Below are positions 1-64,000 of a stretch of DNA of 64,000 nt, piece after piece. The notes beneath the pieces are model-generated. The model was not told the DNA's origin, made no database searches, and worked only from the letters and a program-made list of their open reading frames with translations. This stretch comes from Psilocybe cubensis (Eukaryota). Position 1 is the first letter of the stretch. Every line of letters starts with the position of its first letter. Location of the stretch: assembly GCA_017499595.2 (NCBI GenBank), contig CM039003.1, positions 248,001 to 312,000 of the forward strand, in the 5' to 3' direction. The position numbers and the translations under genes are program-made.

Positions 1-1464
1 CCCTCGAGCTAAAAATCGAGATTTACTCGCACCGATCTCTAGATACTTCTACGCAATGTAATTACTCCAACACAGTACAACACCCCAAAACAAACTAGCA
101 TATCTTTCCAACGTACGCGCAAGAGATAGGTGTGACGAGTCTGCGATTGAATTTTTGTATCTGCGCTGTGTCGGTGAGTTCTCCACAAAGAGCTGTTTTG
201 TACACCCAAATGCGCCGCTGAATGAGGTCAAGATGTCAATCCTAGACCTCTGAATCATCCTCAGTCGACTATTAGAAGCTCCCGAAACATGGCTATGAGC
301 GACATTGAAATCATTCGGGCACATACGGCACCTCCTTCTCCTCGCACCCCGATACGCCATCCACCTTCCACAATAACGCTGTTTCCAGCCCAACCTTGTT
401 AATTAACCGTTCACGTAAGCTTCTAGTACCTTTCGTAACGATATTCAGCGGCGAACTGACCTTTGAATTGCGTTTGCAGCGGCCACGTAGACTTTGTCCC
501 CGGGAAGCGCCTGGTAAGATCTTGCAATTCTACGCGTTTTCGAGAGGTTTTTGAGGCTAATACTGACTGGAACTGTGTTCTGAATAGGGGTTGGACGGTT
601 TGCGATGCGAAGAGCAACACAAAACGTTGGGAATGAACAAATACATCACGTTTGGTTCAATGTACACCAAACAGCGAATTTCGTTGTTTTCTTTGAACTA
701 CACATTTCAAACTGCTCACAGATAGACATCCCAGCACTGCATAGCATCTCTCAATGTCCCTGCAAGCTCCCGCGATCACAGGGTAAGCAATCCAATTCAA
801 CGGAGATTGTTCTCCTCGCACCTTCCCTCGACGCGAAATTGCATGTACGTCGTTTTTCCGGCTTCCATTGGCCCCCTGTGAGTCATCTCGTAACGGTTAT
901 GTACGTGAATAATAGGCTGAAACGGTTGGAATTTTTGTGGAAGACGGAAATGCGGAGTGAATGAAAATATTGCGAATACGAGTGTTGGCGCATCCGGACC
1001 ATGTCTGCGATGCGCGGTAGTTGTATAGCTACCTAGAGTGATATATCTATCTTATCTATCGTGTCTTATTCTGTTTTCATAATGTCTGGCTCGTCGAGTG
1101 CAATAAAATGAATACCTACAAACACATCACGCCAAATCTAACAAACACAGCGATTCGCAACTCTCTCCAAATTCCCGTCGATTTAAAGTAATATACACAC
1201 CTGGATATATTGTATACTCTAACCCTGCACTACAGAAATCAATCAGCAAAAGTACAAACCATTGAATACCAATCGAACAACCAAATCCACAACATGACAT
1301 GACACACCCTCGCCTCCCGCCCAAATTCACAATTACACACCCGTTCAAAACGCTAGAAACACCTGGCTAGTCTATTCGGCTCTCGGCTCGGGTCTGGTCC
1401 GATCAAGGGTCCTGTCAGGTATATTGAGAAGGCCTTCGTAGTTTACTGTACGTTGGTATGTGTG

Positions 1465-2422
1465 CTCCTTCAGTAGATATTGCGAATGGCGTTGTAATTG
1501 ATGTACGTACGTTTAATTGAGAGTAGGTGGAGATATTGGTATACCATTACATGCCTGCTTGACTTTGGAAAAGTGTGAGTTGAGACGGGGATGGTTGAAA
1601 AAGAAAATGTGAACACTCGAGGACTCCTGCAGAACGCGAATGCGTGAAAACAAGCAAAAAACACATTTCATTCACCATAACCATGTTACTACAAACATTA
1701 GAATAGTAAGTACCCCTAAGAATACACTACACCCAACTGTCCAAAGACCCTCGAACTCGATTTTCAAAAATGTATCACTCACCTCACCCGACCTTCCTCT
1801 CCTCCCGATCTTCCGCACTAACGGGCTGAAAAACACCTCTGGATTGTTACCACTCGCCCCTGAAGCATCCGAAGTCGCCGAAGCCGTAATAATAATACCA
1901 AATTTCACAGAAAAAAATTGGCAACTTACGTTTTGTAATTTTGTTGAACGTTGCATGTGGACGTAGTTCTCCTTCAGTAGATATTGCGAATGCCGTTGTA
2001 GTTGTTGTACGTACGTTGAAATGAGAGAGAGTGGAGATATTGGCATACTGGTACATCCAGTGGTTGACTTTTGAGAGATGTGAGTTGAGATGATGGGTAT
2101 TTGGAAATGTTACAGAGAGATATCTTCACCCGAACGTGAATGCTTGAAAAAACACATAAAAACACATTTCATTGGCAATCCTACTACTCACATTGTGCAG
2201 ATGGTACATCTATAGGTATCCTACGACCCACCCAGCAATACTCGAACTCGATTTCGAAATGTATGGCTCACCTCACATCACCCTCTCCCAACCTCCTTCT
2301 CCTCCCGATCTTCCGCACTAACGGGCTGAAAAAAAACGTCTGGATTCCTACCACTCGTCCCTGAAGCTCCGAGGTCACCGCAGCCGTAATCCCAATACCA
2401 AAATATATCGCCAACTTACGTT
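1465..2422. repeat. Diverged ~504-bp direct duplication inside the unit (also near 17848, 27665, 38076, 47893, 58958)
   Basis: ctccttcagtagatattgcgaatg at 1465 and 1969; ctcctcccgatcttccgcactaacgggctgaaaaa in both halves. Confidence 0.92.
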
Positions 2423-3148
2423 CATTCCTTTCGTTTTTGCTCGTTCGCCGGGCTTGATCCTCGTCGATTCACGCACAATTGTGCAATTGTACAACCCTAG
2501 AAGGATTGCGTGCGTTATCTGCTATGCATATGGAGCGACTCCTGAGCTTACCTGGCTGGTTACAGACTTTCAGACACCCAGACAACTCGTCGAAGGCCCA
2601 ACGAGCCTCTTGACCCCCGATACGACCCTCCGCTTCCATTTCAAAAACAACGCAATTTCCGCTGCATTCGACGTATCCAGGGTGTTGTAAGCTAGTGTAT
2701 ATTGCCAACGTAATGCACTAGAGAGGTTCTGAAATCTTTTTTTTCGAGGTTAGTTGCAGTTGGAAGCGAGAGATTGGAGATGGATACGTACCGTTGTGCA
2801 GCAAAGAATGCAATCCGAACCATTCTACGTATGTTCCAGTTTTGTTTTGGGCGACTCCTATTCACATTGAGGTGTGCTTCGATCGAAGGTCGAATGCTCG
2901 ATAACTAAAAACACGATGAAAAGAGAGGGCGAATGCAAACATCTTGTGCACATTCACGCCCGATTCATGTCTCGCCGATTAGACCCAACGGCGGAAATTC
3001 CGACTCCTAGCACAAACGACAGCCTCGAAAGAATATATTGAACGAATCACGTACCCAGATTCAAAAGCAAAAAGCGAGATTCGAAGGGAATCACAACCTA
3101 TTCCGGATGTCGTCACAGGGAGGAAAACACGAAAATAACACACCCGGG

Positions 3149-3205
3149 CTAGCGCGACGGGTTCCGTGTGGATGTACGTACACGGGCGTGTCGCGCTAGT
3201 ATAAA
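3149..3205 (+). promoter_or_regulatory. Palindrome abutting a TATA box (TATAAA also at 19578, 29395, 39806, 49623, 60686)
   Basis: ctagcgcgac...gtcgcgctag perfect 10-bp inverted repeat with inner ccgtgt/acacgg, directly followed by TATAAAGG, a CT-rich stretch and a first AAG|GTAAGC donor. Confidence 0.6.
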
Positions 3206-5076
3206 GGCAGGCGTGTGTTGGTGTGTTTTTCCTCATCCCCTCTTGGGGTTCTCGGCCTCGTCTCCTCCTCCTCTCCTCAAGGTAAGCGCGATTCTCCTTG
3301 AGCGCGTCGGTTGACTGTTGAACATTGAACTCGCAGGTTTTGGTGCTGGGCCGCGTCGGGACGAATCCTGCTTGCTGGTGAGTGTTGCCACTGGCTTGTG
3401 TGCACTGCTGATGCTCGTTGTTGCAGATAGTGTGCTCGTTGTGGCGGGTGTTGGTGTCTCCGTGAGTCGGGTTTTCTTTACCTCGACGCGTCGCAGACTC
3501 TGTTGATGTATAATGACACAGCGGACCTTGAAGTGGTCAACACGTCATGCGGCGGAGGTGCTGGACTGTGCTGTAGGTAGGCACGTCAACGTCGGTCACT
3601 GTGGGGAATGCACTGACCGTGTCTTCTAGCAACTCACCATTGCCGCCCTTGTAAGTGGTAAGTATACCCTCCTGTCTCTTGGATGGCGTGGCTGATGTCG
3701 TGTTATTGCAGAGTGGAGCAACGGTGATGAGCTCGATAGAGCAAGGTAGGTGTCTTGACCCACTAGAAGAACATTGCTGATGATCGACGTGGCAGATGGT
3801 GTGGATGCGAGTCGGGGCCGGCTTATAGGTGAGTGTTCCCACAGACTTGTGGTCATTGCTGATGCTTTGACAGAGTGCTCGTTGTGGCGGGTGACGGTGT
3901 CTAGGTGAGTCGGGTTTTCTTCCCTCGTCGCGTCGTAGATTCTGTTGACGTATGATGAGAAAGCGGACCTTGAAGGTGATCGACACGTCATTCGGCGGAG
4001 GTGCTGGATATTAGGTGAGTGGATGATTTCTCCCTCTACGTGAGTGTGCTCACCGTGTCCTGTGCGCCTACAACCAGTCATTGTACCCCTCATGGTGGTT
4101 GTAGTTGCTGCTGGAAAGAGAGACCGACTTTCCAAGGCATCGGTGGCACGGTCCTATGTTGCAGCAAGAGGCAGCGGCGGCGGCGGAATGGGCGGCCTCA
4201 TTTCCTCTTCATCTCCTGAATGTAAGTGGGATTCTCCTTTACCGCGTTGGTTGATTGTTGAACTTTGAACTCCTAGGTTTTGGTTACTCGTCGTCTGTGT
4301 CGCATCAGGTTAAGGGGAGGTAAGTCAGTGTTGGTGACTGTGAGGAACATGCTGACCGTGTATTTGAGCAGCTCCGTGAACTTGGCATTGGGAACTTTTA
4401 ACTGGTAAGCGTGCGCTTGATATTGAAGGTCAATGCTGATGTCGTGTTTTCTCTGATATTGTAGGGGTAAGCTGGCCGACGAGGAGTCCCCGGTGACCTG
4501 CTGTCGCTGTTATCGCAGCTAGCGACCTCGTTGCTATACAGGTGAGTCGGGATTTCTTTGTGTAACAATGTACTCACCTTGACGCGTTGTAGATGAGAAA
4601 GCGGAACACGACAGTCGACAATATCAGGCAAGTCGGCCTTTTCTCTCCACGGGAGTCTGCTCACTGTACTCCCCAGGACATTGTTCCGTCATTTTTGGCG
4701 TGTGCTCGACGTGTATTTGGCCTGCCGAAGGAGCTCCCGATTGACGAGCTTGTTGAAGTGGGACCTGGTAAGTGACAGACATGTCTGCTGGAAAGAAAGA
4801 GACACAGACTCACCAAGGTGTCGGTGGCGCGGCGGCGGCGGTATGGACCTGGGAGGGACGTGTGGAATGAGGTGAAGAACGCGGCTCTGAACTGTCGACG
4901 GTGTGGATGCGTCCCGCCGGCGGTGGTGAAGGATGTTGGAGGGACGCGTCAGGCCAACTGCTTGCTGTCGCGGAAAGGCATGGCTGGCGTGATGGACATT
5001 GCTGCACCAGTTGGGATGGTTGTAAAAGTCGGGCATGATTGTGGAGCAGACCGGCGCGGGCAGCCGCGCTGGGGTT
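3200..5076 (+). ncRNA. Variant of the intron-dense tract upstream of Rho1 copy 1
   Basis: Same TATA and module motifs, different module composition (shared with 49623-51549). Confidence 0.5.
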
Positions 5077-5314
5077 CATCTCTCTCCAATCGAGGTATTT
5101 ACGCGGAGAGGCGGTGTGATGCGCCAAGGCGGTGCGCCTGTTTACACGCACAGGGCAGGGGCCATTGCATAATCTCTGGCATTCAAGTTCCGCTTTAAAA
5201 CATCATACGGGGACGGTTTGCTCACAACGGACCCCATCCTTTGCTCGTCGCCAGCCCCGCTCCCCAGCACCTAACACTGTCGCCGCTCGGCCCGCACAAC
5301 CGCCCCCGAGAACC

Positions 5315-6577
5315 ATGTCGGAAATCAAAGGAAGGTTGTCATCGTTGGTGATAGTGCTTGCAGGAAGGTATGGTTGGCTTTTGACTAGCTCAGAGAACGT
5401 CAGTTTGCATGCTGATCATCGTCGCCCGTCTAGACTTGTCTGTTGATCGTGTTCTCCAAAGGCACATTCCCAGAGGTACGTACATTGTCATCCGCCGGCC
5501 AGCCAGCCGAGGTGTGGGGCTTGCTGCTCCTCATTGCACCGTCTTGTGGGGTGTTTAGGCAGCTCCAGCGAATCCCTGGCGGCTTCGTCCGAGGTGTGGA
5601 AGGCTGATATTGGCGTTCAACTCTAGGTCTATGTGCCCACCGTGTTCGAGAACTACGTTGCCGATGTCGAGGTCGATGGCAAGCACGTGGAGCTTGCTCT
5701 ATGGGATACGGCCGGCCAGGAAGACTACGATCGTCTACGCCCTCTCAGTTATCCTGATTCGCATGTCATCCTCATCTGCTTCGCCGTCGACTCCCCCCGA
5801 TTCGCTTGATAACGTCCAGGAGAAGGTGTGTCTTGCCTTTCTGTCATTCCCCCTGCCTACATTTTTTTTGGGGATAACATCGGATACGGCAATTTGCTAA
5901 TGTCGTTGTTTTGTGGTTCCCTGCTTTTTAGTGGATTTCCGAAGTTATGCATTTCTGTGCCGGCCTGCCTATCATTCTTGTCGGCTGCAAAAAGGATCTC
6001 AGACGTGACCCCCCGTGTGATTGAGGAGCTTAGGAAGACGAGCCAGCGACCCGTAACCCCCGAAGAGGTGCGTTTTTTCTTGTTTTTTTCTTTTTCCTAC
6101 ATCACATTTCTTGTTTTCGTACGACTTTGGTGTGATGAGGGGGCGAGGTATGTACACGCCCCCGACCCTTATCTGAGCGCCATTTTTTGTGACATTTTTT
6201 GCGCTTCGTTCGAATCTGAATAACGTCATTCTTTTTTTGATGTCCTGTTTTATCACCCTTGCCTCGTTCCCCGCTTCTCTTATCCACATTGTGATCCCCG
6301 TCGCCGCCAACATTCTGTGTCTCAATGTCACCGTTTTTTCATTATTTTTTTTCCGTGCATCATTCTTTACACTCTTCCTCTTTTGTTGATTCCAACTTGT
6401 CACTAACCGTCATGTTTCTAGGGTATGGCAGTCGCCCAGAAGATCGGGGCAAAGCACTACCTCGAGTGCTCCGCCAAGTCGGGTGAAGGCGTCCGCGAAG
6501 TCTTCCAGTACGCCACCCGCGCCGCACTGCTCAGCAGAGGAAAGGGCAAGAAGAGCCACCATTGCATCGTGTTGTAG
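5315..6577 (+). pseudogene. rho1: Rho1 copy 1, frameshifted in exon 1
   Basis: atcaaaggaaggttgtc vs intact atcagaaggaagcttgtc (1-nt deletion). P-loop reads GDSACRK instead of GDGACGK. Exon 2 and exon 5 encode the intact peptide. The extra C in poly-C runs of exons 3 and 4 may be homopolymer errors. Confidence 0.9.
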
Positions 6578-7606
6578 ATGGCGTAGCTTATCCCTTTTAC
6601 CATTTTTTTTTCTTTCCGTCTTCATTCTTTCTTCCTTTCTTCCTTTTTTTGCTTTTTTCTTCCTTGACGACTCTCTTTCACTCTTCTTTCCGAGATCCTT
6701 GGATGCTTGAATTGGGGTGGGTGAAGATGCAGGGAGGAAAACGGGAGGTGGAGCGAGGGAGGGGTGGGGTGAGGTCAGGTAGGGAGGAACTTCAACAAGG
6801 ATAGGGAGGGGCTTGAATATCATTTATACTCGCACCTCGCCACCTTCTCTTTCACCTTGTTCCGGTTGGTTGTGGATAATGAACATGTGTTAATGCCGGT
6901 GGAATGCTCTTCGGTTTCTTTTTTTTTTCTCTTACCTAGTCTTTTTCACTTGATACCGCTTCTTTCTTGATTTTGATTGATGATCCACTTTTGACTCTTC
7001 TTCTCAAATATACTGCTGCTGCTGCACCTCCTGACTGCGACGAGTTGGCTATCTGTTTGTCTCTCCTTGAGCTTCTGTTGCTTTGGCTAAGCCCCTATGG
7101 ATTCCGAGCGTGTATTGCAATTTGAACAAAGTTGAAGTCTAATTGTTTTATATACGTTGTGCTGCCAGATATACATCGCTCGCTGTTGTGATGTATTTTA
7201 CGAGAAGATACTAGCTTTATATGGCATTAGATACCTTATTGAGACAACCCTGAGCAAATGAGATAGAAGTTTTTTGAATTTTCGAGTCGTGTTCTGGTAT
7301 CGTACAAGCAGAGGTTAGCCCCGCCCGAAGGCCAGCAGGGTCCGCCTCTGCTCTATCTACCTATCTAGTACGTACCTGGTCCGAATAAAGTCGGATAGAA
7401 CCGCTCGAGGTGCATCCAGAGTTTTCACAAGTCCGAAAATCGAACAATCGGTTGCGTGAAGTCTACCGAGTAAGTACATACCCGCTCTTGACACCGCCTC
7501 AGAACTCATTCGGCGTCGCCTACAAGCTGTCACACGACCCTTGAGCAGGTGAGTACTATATAAATGTTAAGTGCCAGTTCATAAAGTCTACCAATCAAAG
7601 TACACA

Positions 7607-8500
7607 CCTTGTTTGCCGGACGTCCAGAAATCGAAAAAAAGTCCGGGAAAGTCCAGATACATGCTCGACGTCATCTACTAGATGCAGATGGTGAGTACTA
7701 TATAGATATTAAGTGCGGGTACATACCTTGTTCGCCGGACATCCAGAAATCAAATAAAAACTGTGCAGAAGTCAAATACATGCCCGACGATGTAACCACC
7801 TCAACACCGCTCGCCGGATGCAATAACAACTGCAAGAGGGTTATGTGAACTTCAACAATCAAAGTGAAAAACTCAGTCAACACACCAGGCAGCCAACCCT
7901 CGCTCGCCGGAACTCCAAAAATCGAAAAAAATGTGCAACGACATTCCACGGCACTGGTAAGCTGTTGTTCATTAATTTGACGCCGCTCGCCGGATGTCCA
8001 AAAATCGAAAATAGTGCGAGGCGTTAACGGGACTTCAAACGTCTGTTGAGAAAAGCTCAGTCAGTACTCGGGTCTGCAAACTATGTAACACACCTTGTTG
8101 TGCAACAACCCTCGCTCGCCGGAACTCCAAAAAACGAATAAAAAGTGCAAAGGCGGGTACTGTGTAGATGGTAAGCTGTGGCTCAACAAACTCTAGCAAA
8201 TAAAGCACGTACCTCACTCGCCGGACATCCAAAAATCAAAAAATAACTCCGTGGCATGTCCAAACGTCGACTCCGTCTATGGAAGACAACTCAAGCCAAC
8301 GACTAGATGTGACACGTACTGGTTTCATGGCACGGCGGCAGATGAGAGCTGTGTAAAGAGATCAGTGATGGCCCATTAAGTGTACTAGGTAACATACCTT
8401 GCTCGCCGGACGTCGAAAAATCGAATAAAACTTGCGGCTCCATAGGTAGACACTGTCGATAGAATACAGGTTCGCGGGAACTCCAAAAATCGAATAAAAA
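7607..8500 (+). repeat. Array of about 9 copies of a ~28-nt motif CTCGCCGGA(ac/ca/cg/tg)TCCAAAAATCGAA with irregular spacers (also ~14298-15180, 24115-24997, 33932-34814, 44343-45225, 55400-56293)
   Basis: Motif instances near 7607, 7726, 7808, 7898, 7984, 8110, 8213, 8397, 8471. Confidence 0.88.
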
Positions 8501-9331
8501 ATGCAGGAGCATAAGGACGGGATACGTGTTGGGGGTTCCCCAAAACCCACTTCACTTTATATCCTTTTCCCTAATGCTTCTAGTTTATTCAACGTCACGC
8601 AATATTTGCCCGTTGCCCCCGTTTCCAAACTAGAATGTGATGTCCAATATACCTGCAAGCTAAAATTGGCTCATGTAAATTTTCAGTTGCGGTCTCCTAT
8701 CCCGGTCTTTTGATTCAACTCCGCTGCTTGTTTTCCCCAATCGCCTGTTCTTTCTCATTATCATAAATCATGCTCTCCCCGTCCTTTGTACATCAAATGC
8801 GAAATTTCAGTCTCGGTCTCCTGTTCCGGCCTTTTCAATCAAGTCCACTGCGTTCTTATTGTCATGAAGCTATGCTTCCCGTCCTTGGTGCATCAAACTC
8901 AGGTATGTATCATTTCCTATGCTTTACAATTCTTGTACCCACCACAATCCAAAAATTTTGACCCCTAGACTCAGTAGCTCGTCACTGCGCAGACTCGCGC
9001 ATCGCGACCCAAGCAGCTAGTGCAAGGCAATCACCATTTAGCTGACGCGATGACCTCATGTCGTTCCAAACTACTGGACCTCAGTCAGATCGGGTATCCG
9101 ACTCGCAAAATCTCTCCAGATCGTTGGTTTTCGAAGCTCAAATATTCGATTTTTAGGCTGCATTAACGTATTCAGGGTCGCATTCAGGAACACCTGAGCT
9201 GAGTAATGAGATTTCAGTAACCGACGACTCACTCAACGCCCACGAAATCCCAAGACAGCAATACGCTTCACATTCGCTTCCACGGGGTAGATTTTGTCAC
9301 AGTCCCCTATTTTCTTTGACGACCTATTAAT

Positions 9332-9431
9332 NNNNNNNNNNNNNNNNNNNNNNNNNNNNNNNNNNNNNNNNNNNNNNNNNNNNNNNNNNNNNNNNNNNNN
9401 NNNNNNNNNNNNNNNNNNNNNNNNNNNNNNN
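9332..9431. other. Assembly gap (100 N, true size unknown)
   Basis: Run of N. Confidence 1.
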
Positions 9432-10266
9432 AACTGATGGCGAAAGTGATGTGCCATCAGCACAAATGGTTTCAATAATAGTCACCATTTCACGGTTCCC
9501 ATTTTCAACTTGTTGTACATTTTTCTGTGTTTTGTCAACAATTGCAGAAACAGCTTTTCCAACGCCAAGTTGTATTCCTTTTTCATCTGAGTTATAGATG
9601 TTGCTTGGTATGATATCATATTCCTAAATCAAGGAGATCTTTGAATTATGTCATATCTAGGGATGATATTTTTACATGCCTCGATTAGATCTTTGATCAT
9701 CACAAAAAACTCTCCAACAACTGTCGGATTCAAAGAGCGGGCCCGACATTCCTCAAGTGCAGAGGTTTTTTTGATTTTAAGATCAGTATGTCGTTCCAAA
9801 AACTTCCGGGGCCAGTTGATACCAATTTTCTGTTGTGATATTTCCTAAAAAATAGTACAGTATAAGTAACAGATTACCAATCACAGCACATACAATATAA
9901 CAAAATAGCACTTACTGAAGCATATTCCCGAAGCATGTCCTGAGTTACAGGAAACCCCCGTCGTCCTAATGTCTTTGCCCAATCAACTAGAATACTTTCT
10001 TCGGCATCTGAAAGTGCACGTTCGCCTGCATGTGCATCACGTTTGGTTTTGACTCCATTTAGCCGATTAGTCAACATTCCACGCTTGACACTGTAAATGC
10101 GACAGGCCTCCCGGATTGACAGTGTGTGCTGACCATTAGACTTTAAAGGTGAGGACATAATGGCCTGAATAGCTTCTTGAATCCGATTTTCTACAGTATT
10201 ATTGATAAGATCTGGGATGTCATCATTGGTAGAATCATGTGGAGAAACAGGAGAGGTTGTAGACAT
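9432..10266 (-). CDS. pogo/Fot1-type (Tc1-mariner superfamily) transposase, N-terminal part, cut by the gap
   Basis: Exon 10266-9916 has psq-like HTH (LSIREACRIYSV..GMLTNRLNG) and CENP-B-like HTH (LSDAEESILVDW...GFP). Exon 9844-9680 has IGINWPRKFLERH. Exon 9623-9432 has IYNSDEKG and NREMVTIIETICADG, typical of pogo DDE transposases. Spliced frame is open. Confidence 0.9.
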
Positions 10267-11135
10267 TCTGTGAGTAGTTGAGGAAGAAAAGCGAGTACAG
10301 CTGATTTCTAGTAGCTACTGACAGTGTATCCTACTTAGTTATTATATACTAGGGGTGGAATTAAAGGAGGACATACTTCGGACTTTTTATGGCATTTTGT
10401 ATGATTCTTCCACTTTTCCGAGTGCTATAACTTGGTGAGATGGTGGTTCTATCATTCAAAAATTGGTATTCAATGTCATAGGACATTGCAAAACACAAAC
10501 GCGCCTTCAATTTCTGCCGATCTTTAGCCGTTCTGAAGAACTTCTTTCAATGTTGAAGGTGTTCAAAATTAGCTACTTTTTACTGATTGTCATATTTCAA
10601 GCCTAAAAAAATCGCAAAAAATAAGAGAAGCGAGATTGTGGTACCTTGAAGTGTTATCACTGTAGATCAAGTCATTGTTTGCCGCAATTTTTCCTCATCT
10701 TCTCCGAATACTGCATACAATATGCATATGTTTAAATAGGCAAATCAGTCAAGTCATGCACTTAATTTCCAATTCTCGGAATATTCTCTGGAGATATCTA
10801 CTTGGAATCGAATGTATATTGTAGCCAGGGCTATATATGACCGACGTATACTGTTTTTGTGTCTGCTCAGCGCAGTTGTTGTGTTTGACCAAGTCGATAA
10901 TTATGGATTAGACGTGAGAATGATTAGCAAATCAATGGTGATGGTGAAATCTCACGGTGTATTGGCAAGATTGTGGCAGCAATACTTACTGCCTTGCTCT
11001 AAAAGTTTCTGATGTGGTGTAGAAGTACCACAAGAGCAGTAATACACAAAAAGATTGAAAGAAATTGCTATACAACTCGTCAAAATTGCTCAGTGGCCAT
11101 TTTCCGGGGTTGGCCGGTTTCAGGGTCGGGTACAG
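9432..11135 (-). mobile_element. pogo/Fot1-like DNA transposon, 5' half
   Basis: AT-rich tract containing the transposase. Candidate terminus on the minus strand TA|CTGTACCCGACCCTGAAACCGGCCAACCCCGGAAAATGGCCA has an internal imperfect direct repeat and flanking TA (11136-11137). Partner TIR is not visible. Confidence 0.65.
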
Positions 11136-11137
11136 TA

Positions 11138-11275
11138 GCACTGATGGCACTGAGTCAGCATTGACAGCCGAATGGGTAACGTCATGACCGCTATGAACAG
11201 TCACTAACCGTCTCTGACTTTGATGCTAACCGTAACTTTTATGACCGTCATCCATGGGCTGACCGCCCACCACTG
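11138..11275 (-). mobile_element. Possible hAT-like transposon terminus
   Basis: Minus strand starts CAGTGGTGGGCGGTCAG at 11275, followed by five short T(G/A)ACCG subterminal motifs. No partner end seen. Confidence 0.35.
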
Positions 11276-11981
11276 GGGTAGAGACGGTGCATCTGCTTGG
11301 ATTAAGCTAGAAAAGCGATGCTGGCTAAATATAACGCACTCCCCGTTCCCACATCTTCGCGGAGGGTAACGCAGACCGCGAATATAATAAATTAGAGTAG
11401 GTGCTGAGAGAGCAACGGGGTTATTTTTAAAAACGTCACCAGATAGGGTGCGTCATTATATTCTTTCGACGGTCTATCCGGGGTGGAAGCGCGCACATAG
11501 ATACCGAGGATGAGAAGCGCGCCTCACTGCCATGAAATTAGGAGAATACAGCCTCTACACTTGTAGCTGTTGTACAGCATGGCCATGGTAATAATTTTCG
11601 ACCACGTTCGTTCAACCTAGCAGTAAGATAATTGAAACTGTATAACAAACAACATTGTAAGATAAGGTGAGTAAAATCATGTCCAACGATGACTCGCATC
11701 TCTCTCCAATCGAGGTATTTATTACGACAGCGGCAAGGCACCGGAGAGGCGGTGTGATGCGCCAAGGCGGTGCGCCTGTTCACACGCACAGGGCAGGGGG
11801 CAGGGGAGTTACGTAATCCTGGCCCTCTTGTACGAATTCAAGTTCCGCTTAAAAACGTGGTACCATACGTTCGTCGACGCTTTGCTCACAACCATCCCCC
11901 GCTGCTCGTCGCCAGCCCCGCTTCCAGCACAACTACAAACCCACAAGTCGCCGCTGCCACCGCACAACCTCCCCGAGAACC

Positions 11982-13377
11982 ATGTCAGAAATCAGAAGGA
12001 AGCTTGTCATCGTTGGTGATGGTGCTTGCGGAAAGGTATGGTTGGCTTTTGACCAGCTTAGAGAACGTCAGCTTGCATGCTGATCATCGTCGCCCGTCTA
12101 GACTTGTCTGTTGATCGTGTTTTCCAAAGGCACATTCCCAGAGGTACGTACATTGTCAGCCGCCGGTCAGCCAGCCGAGGTGTGGGGCTTGCTGCTCCTT
12201 ATTGCACCGTCTTGGGGGGTGTTTAGACAGCTCCAGCGAATCCCTGGCGGCTTCGTCCGAGGTGTGGAAGGCTGATATTACTGGCGTTTAACTCTAGGTC
12301 TATGTGCCCACCGTGTTCGAGAACTACGTTGCCGATGTCGAGGTCGATGGCAAGCACGTGGAGCTTGCTCTATGGGATACGGCCGGCCAGGAAGACTACG
12401 ATCGTCTCCGCCCTCTCAGTTATCCTGATTCGCATGTCATCCTCATCTGCTTCGCCGTCGACTCCCCCGATTCGCTTGATAACGTCCAGGAGAAGGTGTG
12501 TCTTGCCTTTCTGTCATTCCCCCTGCCTACATTTTTTTGGGGATAACATCGGATACGGCAATTTGCTAATGTCGTTGTTTTGTGGTTCCCTGCTTTTTAG
12601 TGGATTTCCGAAGTTATGCATTTCTGTGCCGGCCTGCCTATCATTCTTGTCGGCTGCAAAAAGGATCTCAGACGTGACCCCCGTGTGATTGAGGAGCTTA
12701 GGAAGACGAGCCAGCGACCCGTAACCCCCGAAGAGGTGCGTTTTTCTTGTTTTTTCTTTTTCCTACATCACATTTCTTGTTTTCGTACGACTTGGTGTGA
12801 TGAGGGGCGAGATGTGTACACGCCCCGACCCCTTATCTGAGCGCCATTTTTTGTGACATTTTTGCGCTTCGTTCGAATCTGAATAACGGCATTCTTTTTT
12901 TGATGTCCTGTTTATCACCCTTGCCTCGTTCCCGCTTCTCTTATCCACATTGTGATCCCCGTCGCCACCGACATTGACGCCGTTTTTCAATCCAAATTTT
13001 ATTATTTTTCCATGCATCATGTTTTATTTATTCCAACTTGGTACTAACCATCGTCATCTTGTCATGCTTCTCTTATCCACATTGTGATCCCCCTTGCCAC
13101 CGACATTGACGCCGTTTTTCAATATAAATCTCATTATTTTTTTTATGCATCATTCTTTTATACTCCTTTTTTATTTATTCGAACTTGGTACTAACCCATC
13201 GTTATCTTGTAATGTTTCTAGGGTATGGCAGTCGCCCAGAAGATCGGGGCAAAGCACTACCTCGAGTGCTCCGCCAAGTCGGGTGAAGGCGTCCGCGAAG
13301 TCTTCCAGTACGCCACCCGCGCCGCACTGCTCAGCAGAGGAAAGGGCAAGAAGAGCCACCATTGCATCGTGTTGTAG
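11982..13377 (+). CDS. rho1: Rho1 small GTPase, intact, 5 exons, 194 aa
   Basis: Exons 11982-12035 ([18 protein letters not shown]), 12102-12143 ([14 protein letters not shown]), 12298-12495 ([10 protein letters not shown]...[19 protein letters not shown]...QEK), 12601-12735 (WISEV...VGCKKDLR...PEE), 13222-13377 ([19 protein letters not shown]...[10 protein letters not shown]). Four GT-AG phase-0 introns; G1-G5 motifs and CAAX box present. Confidence 0.97.
12782..12882 (+). ncRNA. Structured element in Rho1 intron 4; candidate box C/D snoRNA or K-turn hairpin
   Basis: GTGATGA (12797-12803), CTGA (12837-12840), GTGACA, CTGA (12879-12882). Stems ggtgt/gcgcc, gatgagggg/ccccttatc and ttcgtacga/tcgttcgaa. 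The host intron is unusually long (486 nt). Confidence 0.4.
12935..13221 (+). repeat. ~130-bp tandem duplication of the 3' part of Rho1 intron 4, including the TACTAAC branch site
   Basis: cttctcttatccacattgtgatcccc...ggtactaacc occurs twice in copies 2-5, once in copy 1, and partly duplicated in copies 6-7. Confidence 0.9.
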
Positions 13378-19300: not shown

Positions 19301-19577
19301 GAGAGGGCGAATGCAAACATCTTGTGCACATTCAAGCCCGATTCGTGTCTCGCCGATTAGACCCAATAGCGGAGATCCCGACGCCTAGAACAAACGACAG
19401 CCTCGAAAGAATATATTGAACGAATCACGTACCCAGATTCAAAAGTAAAAAGCGAGATTTGAAGGGAATCGCAACCTATTCCGGATGTCGTCACAGGGAG
19501 GAAAACACGAAAATAACACACCCGGGCTAGCGCGACGGGTTCCGTGTGGATGTACGTACACGGGCGTGTCGCGCTAG

Positions 19578-21541: not shown

Positions 21542-21797
21542 CATCTCTCTTTACGCGACAGCGGCAAGGCAGCGGAGAGGCGGTGTGATGCGCCAAGGCG
21601 GTGCGCCTGTTTACACGCACAGGGCAGAGGCCGTTCGTAATCCTGGCATTCAAGTTCCGCTTTAAAACGGTGGTATCATACATTCGTTGACGGGGCCGCT
21701 TTGCTCACAACCATCCCCCCTGCTCGTCGCCAGCCCCGCTCCCCAGCATCTAATACATCTATTCACGCACGTCGCCGCACAACCGCCCCCGAGAACC

Positions 21798-49400: not shown

Positions 49401-49622
49401 ATTAGACCCAACGGCGGAAATTCCGACTCCTAGCACAAACGACAGCCTCGAAAGAATATATTGAACGAATCACGTACCCAGATTCAAAAGCAAAAAGCGA
49501 GATTCGAAGGGAATCACAACCTATTCCGGATGTCGTCACAGGGAGGAAAACACGAAAATAACACACCCGGGCTAGCGCGACGGGTTCCGTGTGGATGTAC
49601 GTACACGGGCGTGTCGCGCTAG

Positions 49623-52600: not shown

Positions 52601-52785
52601 CTGTCGACGGTGTGGATGCGTCCCGCCGGCGGTGGTGAAAGATGTTGGAGGGACGCGTCAGGCCAACTGCTTGCTGTCGCGGAAAGGCATGGCTGGCGTG
52701 ATGGACATTGCTGCACCAGTCGGGATGGTTGTAAAAGTCGGGCATGATTGTGGAGCAGACCGGCGCGGGCAGCCGCGCTGGGGTT
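49623..52785 (+). ncRNA. Composite, longer intron-dense tract (two variants joined at 51549/51550)
   Basis: First part matches 3200-5130; second part matches 61029-62264. Confidence 0.5.
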
Positions 52786-53038
52786 CATGTCTCTCCAATC
52801 GAGGTATTTACGCGGAGAGGCGGTGTGATGCGCCAAGGCGGTGCGCCTGTTTACACGCACAGCGCAGAGGCCGTTCGTAATCCCTGGCATTCAAGTTCCG
52901 CTTTAAAACGGTGGTATCATACATTCGTTGACGGGGCCGCTTTGCTCACAACCATCCCCCCTGCTCGTCGCCAGCCCCGCTCCCCAGCATCTAATACATC
53001 TATTCACGCACGTCGCCGCACAACCGCCCCCGAGAACC

Positions 53039-54366
53039 ATGTCGGAAATCAAAGGAACCTTGTCATCGTTGGTGATGGTGCTTGCGGAAAGGTATGATCG
53101 GCTTTTGACCAGCTCAGAGAACGTCAGCTTGCATGCTGATCATCGTCACCCGTCTAGACTTGCCTTTTGATTGTGTTATCCAAAGTCATATTCCCAGAGG
53201 TACGTGCATCGTTAGCCGCCGTTCAGCCAGCCGAGGTGTGCGGCTTGCTGCTCCTCATTGCACCGTTATGGCGGTGTTTAGACAGCTCCAGCAAATACCT
53301 GGCGGCTTCGTTCGAGGTGTAGAAGGCTGATATTAGTGTTAAAGTGTAGGTCCATGTACCCATCGTGTTCCGGAACTACGTTGCCAATGTCGAGGTCAAT
53401 GGTAAGCACGTTGAGCTTCAATTGTAAGCACGTCGAGCTTCGATGGTAAGCATGTCGAGCTTCGTCTCCACCCTCTTAGTTATTATAATTCGCATGTCAT
53501 CCTCATCTGCTTTGCCGTCTACCCCTCTTAGTTATTATGATTCGCATGTCGTCCCCACCTGCTTCGCCGTCGACTCCCCGATTCCCTTTATAACATCCAA
53601 TAAAAGGTTTGTCTTGTCTTTTCTTCATTCCCTCTGCCTGTATAATATCAGACACCGCAATTTACTAACATTGTTGTTGTGTGGTTCCTCTCTTTTTAGT
53701 GCCATACCTATGCCTGCCTGCCTCTCATTCTCGTCGTCTGCAAAACAGATCTCAGACCTGACTCCCGTGTGATTGAGGTTCTTAGATAGACGAGCCGTAA
53801 CCCCCGAAGAGGTGCGTTTCTTTTTTCTACGTCACCTTTATTGTTTTTCGTACAACTTTGGTGTGTATGACACGCCCTGGGGCCTGGCCCCTTATCTGAG
53901 TGCCATTTTTGTGCTTCGTTCGAATCACCCACGCATTCTTTTTGATATCCTGTTTATTACCCTTGCCTCATTCCCGCTTCTCTTATCCACATCGTGATCC
54001 CCGTCGCCACCAACATTGACGCCGTATTTCAATCCAATTTTATTTTATTTTTTTTTTCATGCATCATGTTTTATTTATTCCAACTTGGTACTCGCCACCA
54101 ACATTGACGCCGTTTTTCAATACAAATTTCATTATTTTTTCCATGCATCATTCTTTTACACTCTTCCTCTTTTGTTGATTCCAACTTGTCACTAACCGTC
54201 ATGTTTCTAGGGTATGGCAGTCGCCCAGAAGATCGGGGCAAAGCACTACCTCGAGTGCTCCGCCAAGTCGGGTGAGGGCGTCCGCGAAGTCTTCCAGTAC
54301 GCCACCCGCGCCGCACTGCTCAGCAGAGGAAAGGGCAAGAAGAGCCACCATTGCATCGTGTTGTAG
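53039..54366 (+). pseudogene. rho1: Rho1 copy 6, exons 1-4 heavily degenerate, exon 5 intact
   Basis: Exon 1 frameshift. Exon 3 lacks the [12 protein letters not shown]-coding segment and has internal micro-duplications. Exon 4 has deletions. Exon 5 is intact. Confidence 0.95.
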
Positions 54367-57300
54367 ATGGCGTAGCTTATCCCTTTTACCATTTTTTTTT
54401 CTTTCCATCTTCATTCTTCCTTCCTTTCTTCCTTTTTTTGCTTTTTTCTTCCTTGACGACTCTCTTTCACTCTTCTTTCCGAGTTCCTTGCTGGATGGTT
54501 GAATTGAGGGTGGGTGAAGGTGCAGGGAGGAAAATGGGAGGTGGAGCGAGGGAGGGGTGGGGTGAGGTCAGGTAGGGAGGAACTTCAACAAGGATAGGGA
54601 GGGGCTTGAATATCATTTATACTCGCACCTCGCCACCTTCTCTTTCACCTTGTTCCGGTTGGTTGTGGATAATGAACATGTGTTAATGCCGGTGGAATGC
54701 TCTTCGGTTTCTTTTTTTTTTCTCTTACCTAGTCTTTTTCACTTGATACCGCTTCTTTCTTGATTTTGATTGATGATCCACTTTTGACTCTTCTTCTCAA
54801 ATATACTGCTGCTGCTGCACCTCCTGACTGCGACGAGTTGGCTATCTGTTTGTCTCTCCTTGAGCTTCTGTTGCTTTGGCTAAGCCCCTATGGATTCCGA
54901 GCGTGTATTGCAATTTGAACAAAGTTGAAGTCTAATTGTTTTATATACGTTGTGCTGCCAGATATACATCGCTCGCTGTTGTGATGTATTTTACGAGAAG
55001 ATACTAGCTTTATATGGCATTAGATACCTTATTGAGACAACCCTGAGCAAATGAGATAGAAGTTTTTTGAATTTTCGAGTCGTGTTCTGGTATCGTACAA
55101 GCAGAGGTTAGCCCCGCCCGAAGGCCAGCAGGGTCCGCCTCTGCTCTATCTACCTATCTAGTACGTACCTGGTCCGAATAAAGTCGGATAGAACCGCTCG
55201 AGGTGCATCCAGAGTTTTCACAAGTCCGAAAATCGAACAATCGGTTGCGTGAAGTCTACCGAGTAAGTACATACCCGCTCTTGACACCGCCTCAGAACTC
55301 ATTCGGCGTCGCCTACAAGCTGTCACACGACCCTTGAGCAGGTGAGTACTATATAAATGTTAAGTGCCAGTTCATAAAGTCTACCAATCAAAGTACACAC
55401 CTTGTTTGCCGGACGTCCAGAAATCGAAAAAAAGTCCGGGAAAGTCCAGATACATGCTCGACGTCATCTACTAGATGCAGATGGTGAGTACTATATAGAT
55501 ATTAAGTGCGGGTACATACCTTGTTCGCCGGACATCCAGAAATCAAATAAAAACTGTGCAGAAGTCAAATACATGCCCGACGATGTAACCACCTCAACAC
55601 CGCTCGCCGGATGCAATAACAACTGCAAGAGGGTTATGTGAACTTCAACAATCAAAGTGAAAAACTCAGTCAACACACCAGGCAGCCAACCCTCGCTCGC
55701 CGGAACTCCAAAAATCGAAAAAAATGTGCAACGACATTCCACGGCACTGGTAAGCTGTTGTTCATTAATTTGACGCCGCTCGCCGGATGTCCAAAAATCG
55801 AAAATAGTGCGAGGCGTTAACGGGACTTCAAACGTCTGTTGAGAAAAGCTCAGTCAGTACTCGGGTCTGCAAACTATGTAACACACCTTGTTGTGCAACA
55901 ACCCTCGCTCGCCGGAACTCCAAAAAACGAATAAAAAGTGCAAAGGCGGGTACTGTGTAGATGGTAAGCTGTGGCTCAACAAACTCTAGCAAATAAAGCA
56001 CGTACCTCACTCGCCGGACATCCAAAAATCAAAAAATAACTCCGTGGCATGTCCAAACGTCGACTCCGTCTATGGAAGACAACTCAAGCCAACGACTAGA
56101 TGTGACACGTACTGGTTTCATGGCACGGCGGCAGATGAGAGCTGTGTAAAGAGATCAGTGATGGCCCATTAAGTGTACTAGGTAACATACCTTGCTCGCC
56201 GGACGTCGAAAAATCGAATAAAACTTGCGGCTCCATAGGTAGACACTGTCGATAGAATACAGGTTCGCGGGAACTCCAAAAATCGAATAAAAAATGCAGG
56301 AGCATAAGGACGGGATACGTGTTGGGGGTTCCCCAAAACCCACTTCACTTTATATCCTTTTCCCTAATGCTTCTAGTTTATTCAACGTCACGCAATATTT
56401 GCCCGTTGCCCCCGTTTCCAAACTAGAATGTGATGTCCAATATACCTGCAAGCTAAAATTGGCTCATGTAAATTTTCAGTTGCGGTCTCCTATCCCGGTC
56501 TTTTGATTCAACTCCGCTGCTTGTTTTCCCCAATCGCCTGTTCTTTCTCATTATCATAAATCATGCTCTCCCCGTCCTTTGTACATCAAATGCGAAATTT
56601 CAGTCTCGGTCTCCTGTTCCGGCCTTTTCAATCAAGTCCACTGCGTTCTTATTGTCATGAAGCTATGCTTCCCGTCCTTGGTGCATCAAACTCAGGTATG
56701 TATCATTTCCTATGCTTTACAATTCTTGTACCCACCACAATCCAAAAATTTTGACCCCTAGACTCAGTAGCTCGTCACTGCGCAGACTCGCGCATCGCGA
56801 CCCAAGCAGCTAGTGCAAGGCAATCACCATTTAGCTGACGCGATGACCTCATGTCGTTCCAAACTACTGGACCTCAGTCAGATCGGGTATCCGACTCGCA
56901 AAATCTCTCCAGATCGTTGGTTTTCGAAGCTCAAATATTCGATTTTTAGGCTGCATTAACGTATTCAGGGTCGCATTCAGGAACACCTGAGCTGAGTAAT
57001 GAGATTTCAGTAACCGACGACTCACTCAACGCCCACGAAATCCCAAGACAGCAATACGCTTCACATTCGCTTCCACGGGGTAGATTTTGTCACAGTCCCC
57101 TATTTTCTTTGACGACCTATTAATTAATACATTAAATATGTTCACAAAACGCAGACAAGGTTCACACGTAGAGTCAAAGGGTGACAGAACCAACAGGCGG
57201 AGCTCAAATTAGGCGCCCGTGAGTCCGCACTTGCTTCTACCACGACGTCACCTATCCATATCACTCCCACATCCAGTCTGACGTACCGATAACCCCACAC

Positions 57301-60685: not shown

Positions 60686-62264
60686 TATAAAGGCAGGCGT
60701 GTGTTGGTGTGTTTTTCCTCATCCCCTCTTGGGGTTCTCGGCCTCGTCTCCTCCTCCTCTCCTCAAGGTAAGCGCGATTCTCCTTGAGCGCGTCGGTTGA
60801 ATGTTGAACATTGAACTCGCAGGTTCTGGTGCTGGGGCGCGTCGGGACGAATCCTGCTCGCTGGTGAGTGTTGCCACTGGCTTGTGTGCATTGCTAATGC
60901 TCTTGTTGCACATAGTGTACTCGTTGTGGCGGGTGTTGGTGTCTCCGTAAGTTGGGTTTTCTTTACCTCGACGCGTCGCAGGCTCTGTTGATGTATAATG
61001 ACACAGCGGACCTTGAAGTGGTCAACACGTCATGCGGCGGAGGTGCTGGACTGTGCTGTAGGTAGGCACGTTAACGTCGGTCACTGTGGGGAATGCACTG
61101 ACCGTGTCTTCTAGCAGCTCGCCATCATTGCCGCCCTTGTAAGTGGTAAGCATACCCTCGTAGCTCTTGAATGGCGCAGCTGATCCTGTGTTATTGCAGA
61201 CTGGATGGGCGGTGCTGAGCAAGGTAGGTGTTTTCGCCCACTTGAAGATAGTGTTGATGGACGTGGCAGGTGGCGTGGACGCGAGTCGGGGAGGGCTTGC
61301 AGGTGAGTGTTCCCACAGACTTGTGGTCATTCCTAATGCTTTGACAGCGTGCTCGTTGTTGCGGGTGCTGCCGTCTAGGTCAGTCGGCTTTCCTTTACCT
61401 CGTCGCGTCTGTTGACGTGGGATGAGACAGCGGACCTTGGAGATGCTGAACGTGTCATTCGGCGGAGGGGGACTGTCAGGGTCGCATCTGGATGTGCTGC
61501 AGGCAGGCAAGCAAGTCAATGTTGGTGAGTGTGGGGAATGTGCTGACCGTGTATTTGAGCAGCTCACCGTTGCCGCCTTGTAGACTTGTCGGACGAGCTA
61601 GATGGCGGGGAGCGAGGTAGGTGTCTCCACCTTTTTGAAGGACAATGCTGATATTCGACGTGTCTAGTGGTGTAGACGCGAGTCGGGGCCTGCTCGAGGG
61701 TGAGTGTTTCCCCTCGCTTGTGTGCATTGCTAATGCTTTGACAGTTTGCTCGTCGTTGCGGATGCTGGTGTCTAGGTGTGTCGCGTTTTCTTTACCTCGT
61801 CGCGTCGCAGAGCGTGTTGATGTAGGATGCGACAGCATATGTTGGTGATGCTCGACGCGTCATTCGGCGGAGGTGCTGGACATTTAGGTCAGTGAATGTT
61901 TTCTCTCTGCGTGAGTGTGCTCACCGTGTCCTGTACATGTATATAACCAGTCATTGAGATACTGACTCCCAAGGCGTCGGTGGCGCTGAGCTATGTTGCA
62001 GACAGAGGCGGCGGCGGCGGCGGCGGCGGTATGGATCTGGGAAGGACGTGTGGAATGAGGTGAAGAACGCGGCTCTGAACTGTCGACGGTGTGGATGCGT
62101 CCCGCCGGCGGTGGTGAAAGATGTTGGAGGGACGCGTCAGGCCAACTGCTTGCTGTCGCGGAAAGGCATGGCTGGCGTGATGGACATTGCTGCACCAGTC
62201 GGGATGGTTGTAAAAGTCGGGCATGATTGTGGAGCAGACCGGCGCGGGCAGCCGCGCTGGGGTT
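60686..62264 (+). ncRNA. Third, shorter variant of the intron-dense tract
   Basis: Same TATA and module motifs; lacks the block found at about 20810-21270. Confidence 0.5.
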
Positions 62265-62517
62265 CATGTCTCTCCAATCGAGGTATTTACGCGGAGAGGC
62301 GGTGTGATGCGCCAAGGCGGTGCGCCTGTTTACACGCACAGCGCAGAGGCCGTTCGTAATCCCTGGCATTCAAGTTCCGCTTTAAAACGGTGGTATCATA
62401 CATTCGTTGACGGGGCCGCTTTGCTCACAACCATCCCCCCTGCTCGTCGCCAGCCCCGCTCCCCAGCATCTAATACATCTATTCACGCACGTCGCCGCAC
62501 AACCGCCCCCGAGAACC

Positions 62518-63845
62518 ATGTCGGAAATCAAAGGAACCTTGTCATCGTTGGTGATGGTGCTTGCGGAAAGGTATGATCGGCTTTTGACCAGCTCAGAGAA
62601 CGTCAGCTTGCATGCTGATCATCGTCACCCGTCTAGACTTGCCTTTTGATTGTGTTATCCAAAGTCATATTCCCAGAGGTACGTGCATCGTTAGCCGCCG
62701 TTCAGCCAGCCGAGGTGTGCGGCTTGCTGCTCCTCATTGCACCGTTATGGCGGTGTTTAGACAGCTCCAGCAAATACCTGGCGGCTTCGTTCGAGGTGTA
62801 GAAGGCTGATATTAGTGTTAAAGTGTAGGTCCATGTACCCATCGTGTTCCGGAACTACGTTGCCAATGTCGAGGTCAATGGTAAGCACGTTGAGCTTCAA
62901 TTGTAAGCACGTCGAGCTTCGATGGTAAGCATGTCGAGCTTCGTCTCCACCCTCTTAGTTATTATAATTCGCATGTCATCCTCATCTGCTTTGCCGTCTA
63001 CCCCTCTTAGTTATTATGATTCGCATGTCGTCCCCACCTGCTTCGCCGTCGACTCCCCGATTCCCTTTATAACATCCAATAAAAGGTTTGTCTTGTCTTT
63101 TCTTCATTCCCTCTGCCTGTATAATATCAGACACCGCAATTTACTAACATTGTTGTTGTGTGGTTCCTCTCTTTTTAGTGCCATACCTATGCCTGCCTGC
63201 CTCTCATTCTCGTCGTCTGCAAAACAGATCTCAGACCTGACTCCCGTGTGATTGAGGTTCTTAGATAGACGAGCCGTAACCCCCGAAGAGGTGCGTTTCT
63301 TTTTTCTACGTCACCTTTATTGTTTTTCGTACAACTTTGGTGTGTATGACACGCCCTGGGGCCTGGCCCCTTATCTGAGTGCCATTTTTGTGCTTCGTTC
63401 GAATCACCCACGCATTCTTTTTGATATCCTGTTTATTACCCTTGCCTCATTCCCGCTTCTCTTATCCACATCGTGATCCCCGTCGCCACCAACATTGACG
63501 CCGTATTTCAATCCAATTTTATTTTATTTTTTTTTTCATGCATCATGTTTTATTTATTCCAACTTGGTACTCGCCACCAACATTGACGCCGTTTTTCAAT
63601 ACAAATTTCATTATTTTTTCCATGCATCATTCTTTTACACTCTTCCTCTTTTGTTGATTCCAACTTGTCACTAACCGTCATGTTTCTAGGGTATGGCAGT
63701 CGCCCAGAAGATCGGGGCAAAGCACTACCTCGAGTGCTCCGCCAAGTCGGGTGAGGGCGTCCGCGAAGTCTTCCAGTACGCCACCCGCGCCGCACTGCTC
63801 AGCAGAGGAAAGGGCAAGAAGAGCCACCATTGCATCGTGTTGTAG
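62518..63845 (+). pseudogene. rho1: Rho1 copy 7 (same as copy 6)
   Basis: Offset 9479 from copy 6, with the same lesions. Confidence 0.95.
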
Positions 63846-64000
63846 ATGGCGTAGCTTATCCCTTTTACCATTTTTTTTTCTTTCCATCTTCATTCTTCCT
63901 TCCTTTCTTCCTTTTTTTGCTTTTTTCTTCCTTGACGACTCTCTTTCACTCTTCTTTCCGAGTTCCTTGCTGGATGGTTGAATTGAGGGTGGGTGAAGGT

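Follow-up and report, generated by a model that had tools for sequence, protein, structure and literature searches.

How does a housekeeping GTPase gene come to stand at the head of a tandem row of its own dead copies, and do those copies have any function? The question is raised by the gene Rho1 in Psilocybe cubensis, in a stretch of 64,000 nucleotides (assembly GCA_017499595.2, contig CM039003.1, positions 248,001 to 312,000 of the forward strand) that we call the window and number from its first letter. Fungal Rho1 is the partner of beta-1,3-glucan synthase, and its essentiality is known from yeasts. A previous interpretation of the letters by themselves, hereafter the sequence-only reading, had described the window as a satellite built around this gene. 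We find that the array is real in kind and uncertain in count, that it is old, still exchanging sequence and transcribed, and that it is absent from at least two read sets. The explanation that we favour, and consider probable, is an old, neutral, haplotype-specific gene-plus-pseudogene array that arose locally at the normal Rho1 locus and has been maintained by unequal exchange. It is part of this explanation, and in our judgement likewise probable, that the extra copies have no selected function.

The only intact copy, as the sequence-only reading had recognised, lies on the forward strand at 11982-13377. Its five exons (11982-12035, 12102-12143, 12298-12495, 12601-12735 and 13222-13377) are separated by four GT-AG introns and splice to a Rho1 of 194 amino acids (aa) ending in CIVL, a CAAX box. 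Exon 3 matches Pfam Ras (PF00071, Ras-family small GTPase). The best of 57 matches to exon 5 are two Psilocybe cubensis records at 100% identity; to P0006, which comes from a cluster of agaric small GTPases, the exon is 90% identical. The Ras-family domain, the near identity to fungal Rho1, the CAAX box and a spliced mRNA all identify the product as a Rho1 GTPase. Four of 15 listed runs (X7, X8, X14 and X15) were compared in detail with 9433-21555. X7 and X8 are contig sets from one study. No unit-containing run in the list is recorded as RNA, and we take these two to be RNA by guess, a guess backed by their spliced joints and poly(A). For X14 and X15 the data are raw DNA reads, of which 26% and 29% of each run were read. 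RNA of the intact gene is spliced at all four introns in X7, and three of them are listed as spliced in X8; its poly(A) is at about 13829-13833. Excerpts of one study describe an FKS1-Rho1-Smi1 complex that is apparently conserved and steadily expressed in Agaricomycetes (PMC10282164; this and the other papers cited by PMC number are drawn on in part).

The intact copy is thus an ordinary agaric Rho1, and what sets the locus apart from an ordinary fungal Rho1 is that pseudogene copies follow it in tandem. It keeps its own upstream flank (9432-11696), which lies outside the repeat unit and has a minus-strand remnant of a pogo/Fot1-like transposase; reads of X14 and X15, the two sets that lack the array (see below), cover this flank. 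Between this flank and the ATG lie the Rho1 promoter and 5′ leader (11697-11981, forward strand), a piece of 285 nt whose first base is the unit junction and which is about 15% diverged in each unit. The intact gene is first in the contiguous array. The sequence-only reading was right about the tandem units, though the working gene is not shown to sit inside the array and starts its contiguous part, at the normal locus.

Comparison of the window with itself confirmed seven Rho1 copies in head-to-tail units of 9.5-11 kb, the repeat spanning the whole window except 9332-11696. The copies start at 5315, 11982, 21798, 31615, 42026, 53039 and 62518, giving start-to-start spacings of 6667 (across a gap), 9816, 9817, 10411, 11013 and 9479. 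In each unit the end of a 7.4-kb block unrelated to Rho1 is joined to the base 285 nt upstream of an ATG. The six extra copies fall into three pseudogene types, which we call A (21798, 31615 and 42026), B (53039 and 62518) and C (5315). The A units 14166-23982 and 23983-33799 agree at every one of 9817 nt, and the sole difference of the third (33800-44210) is a 594-nt insertion of a miniature inverted-repeat transposable element (MITE). The MITE itself measures 592 nt (37441-38032), has 28-nt terminal inverted repeats (27/28 match) flanked by a TA duplication and occurs in one unit only; its presence there indicates that units were last copied recently. Further right, at 51549/51550 on the forward strand, a type C unit breaks off just within its Rho1 promoter piece and a type B module follows directly, and the stretch 51550-54521, of type B, is identical to 61029-64000, also of type B.

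Both ends of the window had been said to lie within the array. This holds at the right. At the left, the array piece 1-9331 (forward strand) is cut off from the intact gene by a scaffold gap of 100 Ns (9332-9431), whose true size the Ns do not fix, and 9432-11696 is outside the unit. The left piece is only scaffolded beside the intact gene, and its true place there is unproven. The locus qualifies as a macrosatellite in that multi-kilobase units stand head to tail at one place, and in that copy number differs between individuals, as zero (X14 and X15, from one study and assigned by species label) versus present (the window and X7/X8). An array of rDNA or tRNA genes was considered and ruled out, with 0 Rfam matches and 0 tRNAs in the window. 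CpG observed/expected is 0.93-1.17 in the unit, which is no depletion; the pogo remnant and the MITE have values of 0.70 and 0.64.

Could the array be largely a product of assembly, with one or two real pseudogene copies written out repeatedly and haplotype pieces scaffolded side by side? The identity of two units over 9817 nt would fit such an origin. So would the stretch of roughly 24 kb without a unit-specific mark that separates the MITE from the last site peculiar to the intact copy, and so would the left piece, which behind its gap repeats parts of the right piece almost exactly (1-5126 matches 46429-51549 at 99.8%, and 7369-9331 matches 55162-57124 at 100%). Moreover, the number of identical A units is taken from the assembly alone. 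Against this, the RNA contigs of X7 and X8 carry type B, type C and A-like alleles as well as the unit junction, the types differ from each other by up to about 20% in places, one unit alone has the MITE with its target duplication, and public gene models hold a further B-like type from outside the window. We regard an assembly origin as very unlikely. Because of the RNA alleles, the type divergence, the MITE and the extra public type, at least three pseudogene copies are real, and doubt extends only to the A-unit count and to where the left piece belongs.

The public models in question are named rho1, and they are pseudogene read-throughs, of which users should be warned. P0001 and P0058 map to type C, whereas P0002 and P0059 represent the B-like type that is absent from the window (97.8% and 91.4% identity to the window's type B in two stretches). 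All four may share an assembly or strain with the window and are not counted as independent. The long made-up N-terminus of P0002 and P0059 has its explanation in type B (52828-53094 and 62307-62573), where the P-loop can be read in frame from an upstream ATG.

All six extra copies (6/6) lack one base of codon 5, in agreement with the frameshift first noted from the letters. The frame from the pseudogenes' own ATG, translated for one copy per type, gives 21 aa and stops in exon 2. Rescue of the frameshift by an upstream ATG was considered and rejected. An ATG 211 nt upstream shares the frame of the P-loop in type B, but exon 3 of that type is decayed; in types A and C the same upstream frame stops early. 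None of the extra copies (0/6) has an intact frame or can encode Rho1, and the earlier argument that this is not dosage amplification stands. The yeast arrays of CUP1 and ENA1 are dosage arrays. Like them, the Rho1 array consists of head-to-tail gene-plus-flank units changed by unequal exchange; unlike them, its extra copies are all broken in codon 5, and for this reason Rho1 gene dosage does not rise.

Copies within one type share the same differences from the intact gene, and the types differ in how they have decayed. Type C (5315-6577) has, besides the codon-5 deletion, 1-nt insertions in exons 3 and 4. The three type A copies (21798-23191, 31615-33008 and 42026-43419) are identical to one another and combine a dead 5′ part with a 3′ part like the X14/X15 allele. 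The two type B copies (53039-54366 and 62518-63845, the second within the stretch identical to the first copy's) have the same 5′ exons as type A, decayed exons 3-4 with small tandem duplications, and a nearly intact exon 5; all six copies are on the forward strand. The 5′ exons of all types look neutral. Type B shows the same in its 3′ half, where 64/466 exon and 74/481 intron positions differ from the intact copy, 14-15% in both, with 19 synonymous and 45 non-synonymous changes, close to the 23% synonymous expected if changes fell at random. We read the middle of type B as a record of long neutral decay, and this divergence, alike in exons and introns, shows that the lineage is old. The claim that the satellite is long-lived is thereby borne out.

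The 3′ halves of the other two types tell of a different history. In type C, exons 3-5 carry 1/489 changes from the intact copy, compared with 36/448 in introns 3-4 (p = 5e-11), and in type A exons 3-5 carry 4 synonymous and 0 non-synonymous changes. Since a pseudogene cannot keep its exons clean while its introns drift, these 3′ halves must have been copied recently from working alleles, and we regard their refreshing from working Rho1 alleles as demonstrated by the window's letters and the reads. Among 18 sites between 12507 and 13613 where X14/X15 differ from the intact copy (a subset, from 40 of 163 difference rows listed), the X14/X15 base is found at 17/18 in type A, 7/18 in type B and 6/18 in type C. 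Moreover, the informative sites change partner several times along the gene. Identical units, mosaic sites and refreshed 3′ halves all agree with the earlier view that the array is still recombining.

Is the array a fixed feature of the species? A comparison of strains had been proposed from the letters, and the part of it that was run concerns X14 and X15. Reads of both sets cover 9433 to about 14060 and essentially none of 14293-21555 (depth 0 to 0.06). The bin before 14293 fits coverage up to about 14060 together with a pile of reads on 14095-14131; for matching that ends near 14060, 117.7 and 103.2 are expected, and 117.2 and 105.5 were seen. Depth over Rho1 itself is 20-35, which we take as about one copy, compared with about 36-38 expected for one copy, the expectation resting on 1632 and 1731 million letters over a genome of about 45 million (the contig total of the best unit-containing runs). 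Because coverage ends near 14060 and depth is about 0 beyond, the accessory block, which is the entire non-Rho1 part of the unit, is missing from the X14/X15 strains. Six runs of two studies contain 70-82% of the unit's words, one of which may be the window's own source; in runs X9-X13 the word shares are small (0.04-0.28) and give no evidence either way. The array is not fixed in the species and differs between strains.

Lastly for the structure, we sought the nature of the accessory DNA, which makes up about three quarters of the unit (7.4 kb, 14166-21541 in the first unit) and is non-coding. A Pfam search of 7 plus 14 frames of, or overlapping, the block gave two weak matches below the cut-off (Agouti, E 0.039, and an IFT121 zinc finger, E 0.049). 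Homology searches with three of its frames returned nothing, the best Atlas value being 0.78, and no transposase, Rep, helicase or RepHel match was found in the unit frames tested. The block contains seven degenerate copies of a 45-nt sub-repeat on the forward strand (14406-15184, spaced 69-187 nt) and, also on the forward strand, a module rich in intron-like motifs with a TATA-like box (19575-21141), in which we count 20 intron-like candidates, some overlapping, compared with 1.3 in shuffles. The module consists of about 420 nt repeated three times behind the TATA-like box, no protein was recognised in it, and equivalents lie at 3197, 29392, 39803, 49620 and 60683. An older internal duplication of about 500 nt, 74% alike, occupies 17845-18782; its first copy lies mostly in a stretch without RNA contigs.

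The block begins behind a hairpin motif ending in CTAG (14095-14165, forward strand), which occurs once per unit and at which array-free strains stop matching. The first 37 nt of the motif (14095-14131) are shared with roughly 50 dispersed copies per genome in X14 and X15, a rough count from the read pile, and the side conserved among these copies is the left. The dispersed copies have at least two different left-hand neighbours. The 37-nt motif is probably the end of a transposon family. This raises a rival explanation, namely that a non-autonomous Helitron-like element captured Rho1 near its 3′ end, was multiplied head to tail by rolling-circle replication and then returned to the normal locus by recombination between Rho1 sequences, later upkeep being as in the explanation that we favour. 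The CTAG is followed by T (14162-14166) and stands 13 nt past the outer stem, and excerpts of the literature give, for HLE1 Helitrons, a hairpin about 12 nt before CTRR and then T, with TC at the 5′ end, and short inverted ends for HLE2 (PMC4289320, PMC5148889, PMC11417382). Judged by such features, the motif looks like a Helitron end. Moreover, the motif contains a CC-GAA-GG hairpin like those described for the 5′ ends of FoHeli1/2 (PMC5148889, in part), Helitrons of another agaric are reported in excerpt to capture and express genes (PMC4289320), and the order of full promoter, intact gene, end motif and unit is that expected from integration of a circle.

Other features of the same motif speak against capture. 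CTAG is directly followed by TA in 6/6 units, not by the TC or TG expected of an HLE1 5′ end; in Pleurotus that end is T[C/G], according to the part of PMC4289320 drawn on. The 12-17 nt terminal inverted repeats of HLE2 are not found: between 14060-14170 and 14166-21800 there is no exact inverted match of at least 10 nt, only an imperfect local one around the motif. The hairpin fold is modest (z -1.78, with 8/200 shuffles folding as well). The consensus of the dispersed family, built from reads, continues TCTATCTAC, with no CTAG within the 30 letters given. Of two metagenome scans with the end motif, one gave 0 matches and the other 11 that were judged chance, none similar to the window, so that neither found fungal relatives. 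With TA after the motif, no terminal inverted repeat, no transposase, no Rep or helicase frame and no dispersed copies of the accessory block in X14/X15, the unit is not classed as a Helitron, and we hold capture by such an element to be unlikely, if the most serious of the alternatives weighed here.

The same balance appears when the array is set beside described elements. Excerpts on HELPO1/2 of Pleurotus ostreatus (PMC4289320, PMC5397611) and FoHeli of Fusarium oxysporum (PMC5148889) report a hairpin with a CTAG-like end, an expressed gene copy and presence or absence by strain; the array shares the last two and has a candidate for the first. Tandem Helitron copies are reported from other organisms. 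Unlike those elements, the array has no 5′ TC/TG after its end, no terminal inverted repeat, no RepHel in the frames tested and no second locus that we could see, and it stands at the donor gene itself.

Do the dead copies make RNA, and could that RNA matter? A check by copy-specific sites had also been proposed, and for RNA it was run on X7 and X8. Contig depth is a poor measure of level, and the contigs are unstranded except at splices. Depth is zero at 9433-11052 and 17533-18342 in both sets, which argues against DNA carry-over. In both, a type B contig has intron 3 removed and intron 4 retained, at a depth of 195 and 234 compared with 882 and 466 for the intact mRNA in the two runs. Within the accessory block, part of a plus-strand spliced RNA was recovered in X7 and X8 (15645-16425, with GT-AG introns at 16104-16161 and 16363-16425). 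Splice models of this RNA and of the intron-motif module hold no long frame, the stop-free stretches being at most 112 aa. Over the module itself (19575-21141) no plus-strand splice appears among the 15 of 35 joints listed, and contigs run straight through the intron-like motifs. The RNA there looks unspliced because minus-strand RNA overlaps it.

This minus-strand RNA is spliced and carries type C alleles. Its joints were mapped on the type A unit and then placed on type C, where the RNA spans 2736-5140, with introns at 2736-2791, 4534-4577 and 4749-4813 and ends that are not fixed. On type A, two CT..AC joints (20999-21042 and 21214-21278) and the joint across the unit junction share one depth within each run (109 in one, 33.3 in the other) and are read as one contig, while a further skip near 19114, on a separate contig, is a canonical minus-strand intron in type C. 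The RNA crosses the unit junction at 5077 into the pseudogene promoter region, and the contig reaches at least about 50 nt into the promoter piece. A spliced RNA thus runs leftwards from the pseudogene promoter region, or from further inside the pseudogene. In its spliced model the longest stop-free frame is 185 aa, slightly long (5/300 simple shuffles reach it), and a decayed protein gene may lie behind it.

A second rival explanation takes up here. The array could be a kept regulatory locus, whose pseudogene antisense RNA pairs with sense pseudogene RNA or with Rho1 mRNA, feeds RNA interference, lowers Rho1 in array-bearing strains and alters wall synthesis or fruiting-body shape. Besides the minus-strand joints, it can point to unspliced RNA of introns 1 and 2 in X7, which carries pseudogene alleles (depth 59.5 and 80.6) and none of the intact copy. 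This fits antisense RNA across the pseudogene and, being unstranded, is not proof of it. There is also ample matching sequence, since types C, A and B share 659, 656 and 391 of 1100 21-mers with the intact mRNA. On the other hand, the contigs are unstranded over the Rho1 exons, only about 50 nt of the promoter piece is tied to the minus-strand contig, rows of unspliced intron 1 and 2 are absent from X8, and in both runs no joint listed exceeds those of the intact Rho1 mRNA in contig depth. Antisense transcripts are moreover described as common in mushroom-forming fungi, and many of them as perhaps noise (PMC10282164, in excerpt). We consider a kept antisense locus improbable.

Still bolder would be an array that acts as a strain-variable RNA-silencing dial, with antisense RNA running through pseudogenes whose 3′ halves are matched by conversion, small RNAs made from them and Rho1 lowered the more copies there are, so that hyphal walls or the shape of the mushroom would be affected in the strains concerned. 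None of our data supports such a dial directly, and we rate it as doubtful as the antisense locus. Repeat-derived silencing is known from mammalian pseudogene small RNAs, from plant chalcone-synthase repeat loci and from tandem transgenes in Neurospora and Cryptococcus. With these loci the array would share tandem copies whose sense and opposite-strand RNA matches an unrepeated working gene. Were the antisense reading true, a cell-wall gene would here have a native regulator that acts according to copy number; if it is false, the array is an unusual but ordinary structural variant.

The local origin that we favour would begin with the placing of about 7.4 kb of accessory DNA, starting at the transposon-end-like motif, 0.7 kb downstream of the Rho1 stop codon on one haplotype. 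A head-to-tail duplication would then have taken in everything between the point 285 nt upstream of the ATG and the far end of the block, the full upstream region being kept by the first copy only. Afterwards the extra copies decayed, and one dead 5′ end with the codon-5 deletion came to be common to all, a stage still legible in the copies. Recent multiplication of units and overwriting of the A and C 3′ halves from working Rho1 alleles followed, as both the window and the reads show. The overwriting most likely occurred through out-of-register pairing of array-bearing and array-free chromosomes; conversion between homologous chromosomes is reported at element-bearing loci of another agaric in the part of PMC5397611 drawn on. 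From what is known of Rho1's role, only products with one clean gene behind the full promoter would have survived. Finally, the promoter piece and cryptic promoters would give rise to sense pseudogene RNA and to spliced non-coding RNA, some of it minus-strand, as the contigs bear out in part, and these RNAs are most likely by-products.

We prefer local duplication beside a transposon relic, followed by unequal exchange, because it needs fewer unseen steps than capture. Several observations weigh against it nonetheless. The unit boundary falls at the hairpin/CTAG motif of a dispersed family, which would not be expected if duplication were purely random. At the right the array ends somewhere beyond the window, and the placing and first duplication of the block are unseen. 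Taken by itself, the difference between exons and introns in type A does not reach significance (p = 0.13). A single study supplied both X14 and X15, and only a species label links them to the array-bearing runs. Pseudogene RNA is plentiful by contig depth and, together with the time implied by the 14-15% decay of type B, leaves room for function.

Gene-plus-pseudogene modules and gene-bearing macrosatellites with copy-number variation and conversion are known from human RCCX (CYP21A2/CYP21A1P) and D4Z4/DUX4. As in these, one working gene is accompanied by tandem dead copies and chimeras, copy number differs between individuals and the units are transcribed, and by this likeness the array would work as such modules do. 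Unlike them, it is fungal and concerns a housekeeping GTPase, transfer is visible from working alleles into pseudogenes, and accessory DNA, which array-free strains lack, makes up three quarters of each unit. What is new here is that the target is a housekeeping gene, that sequence passes from alleles to pseudogenes and that RNA is made from the opposite strand. We found no paper naming both 'Psilocybe cubensis' and 'rho1', and none on the locus as judged by title and the start of the abstract, in a search that left subscription papers mostly outside; supplements of genome papers could list the array.

The locus offers a clean natural example, in a mushroom, of a housekeeping gene whose dead copies stay in genetic contact with it. 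Since sequence from different working alleles is preserved in the pseudogenes, and strains without the array seem to exist, one cross can test the cost of the array, its exchange rates and any silencing effect.

Some minor observations concern the intact gene and its surroundings. At 13613 X7, X8, X14 and X15 all differ from the window's intact copy, which may reflect a private change or an assembly error, and the same four sets have an extra base behind site 13641. Upstream, the pogo/Fot1-like remnant on the minus strand (9432-10900) is CpG-depleted (0.70) and truncated by the scaffold gap; its frame 9874-10314 matches HTH_psq (E 4.9e-05) and, weakly, HTH_Tnp_Tc5. Depth in X14/X15 rises to about 100 at 11053-11457, 3-4x that of the gene, with loose read ends at 11136, which points to a small repeat upstream of Rho1. 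Just past the stop codon, at 13383-13446, about 30 sites separate the intact copy from every pseudogene type.

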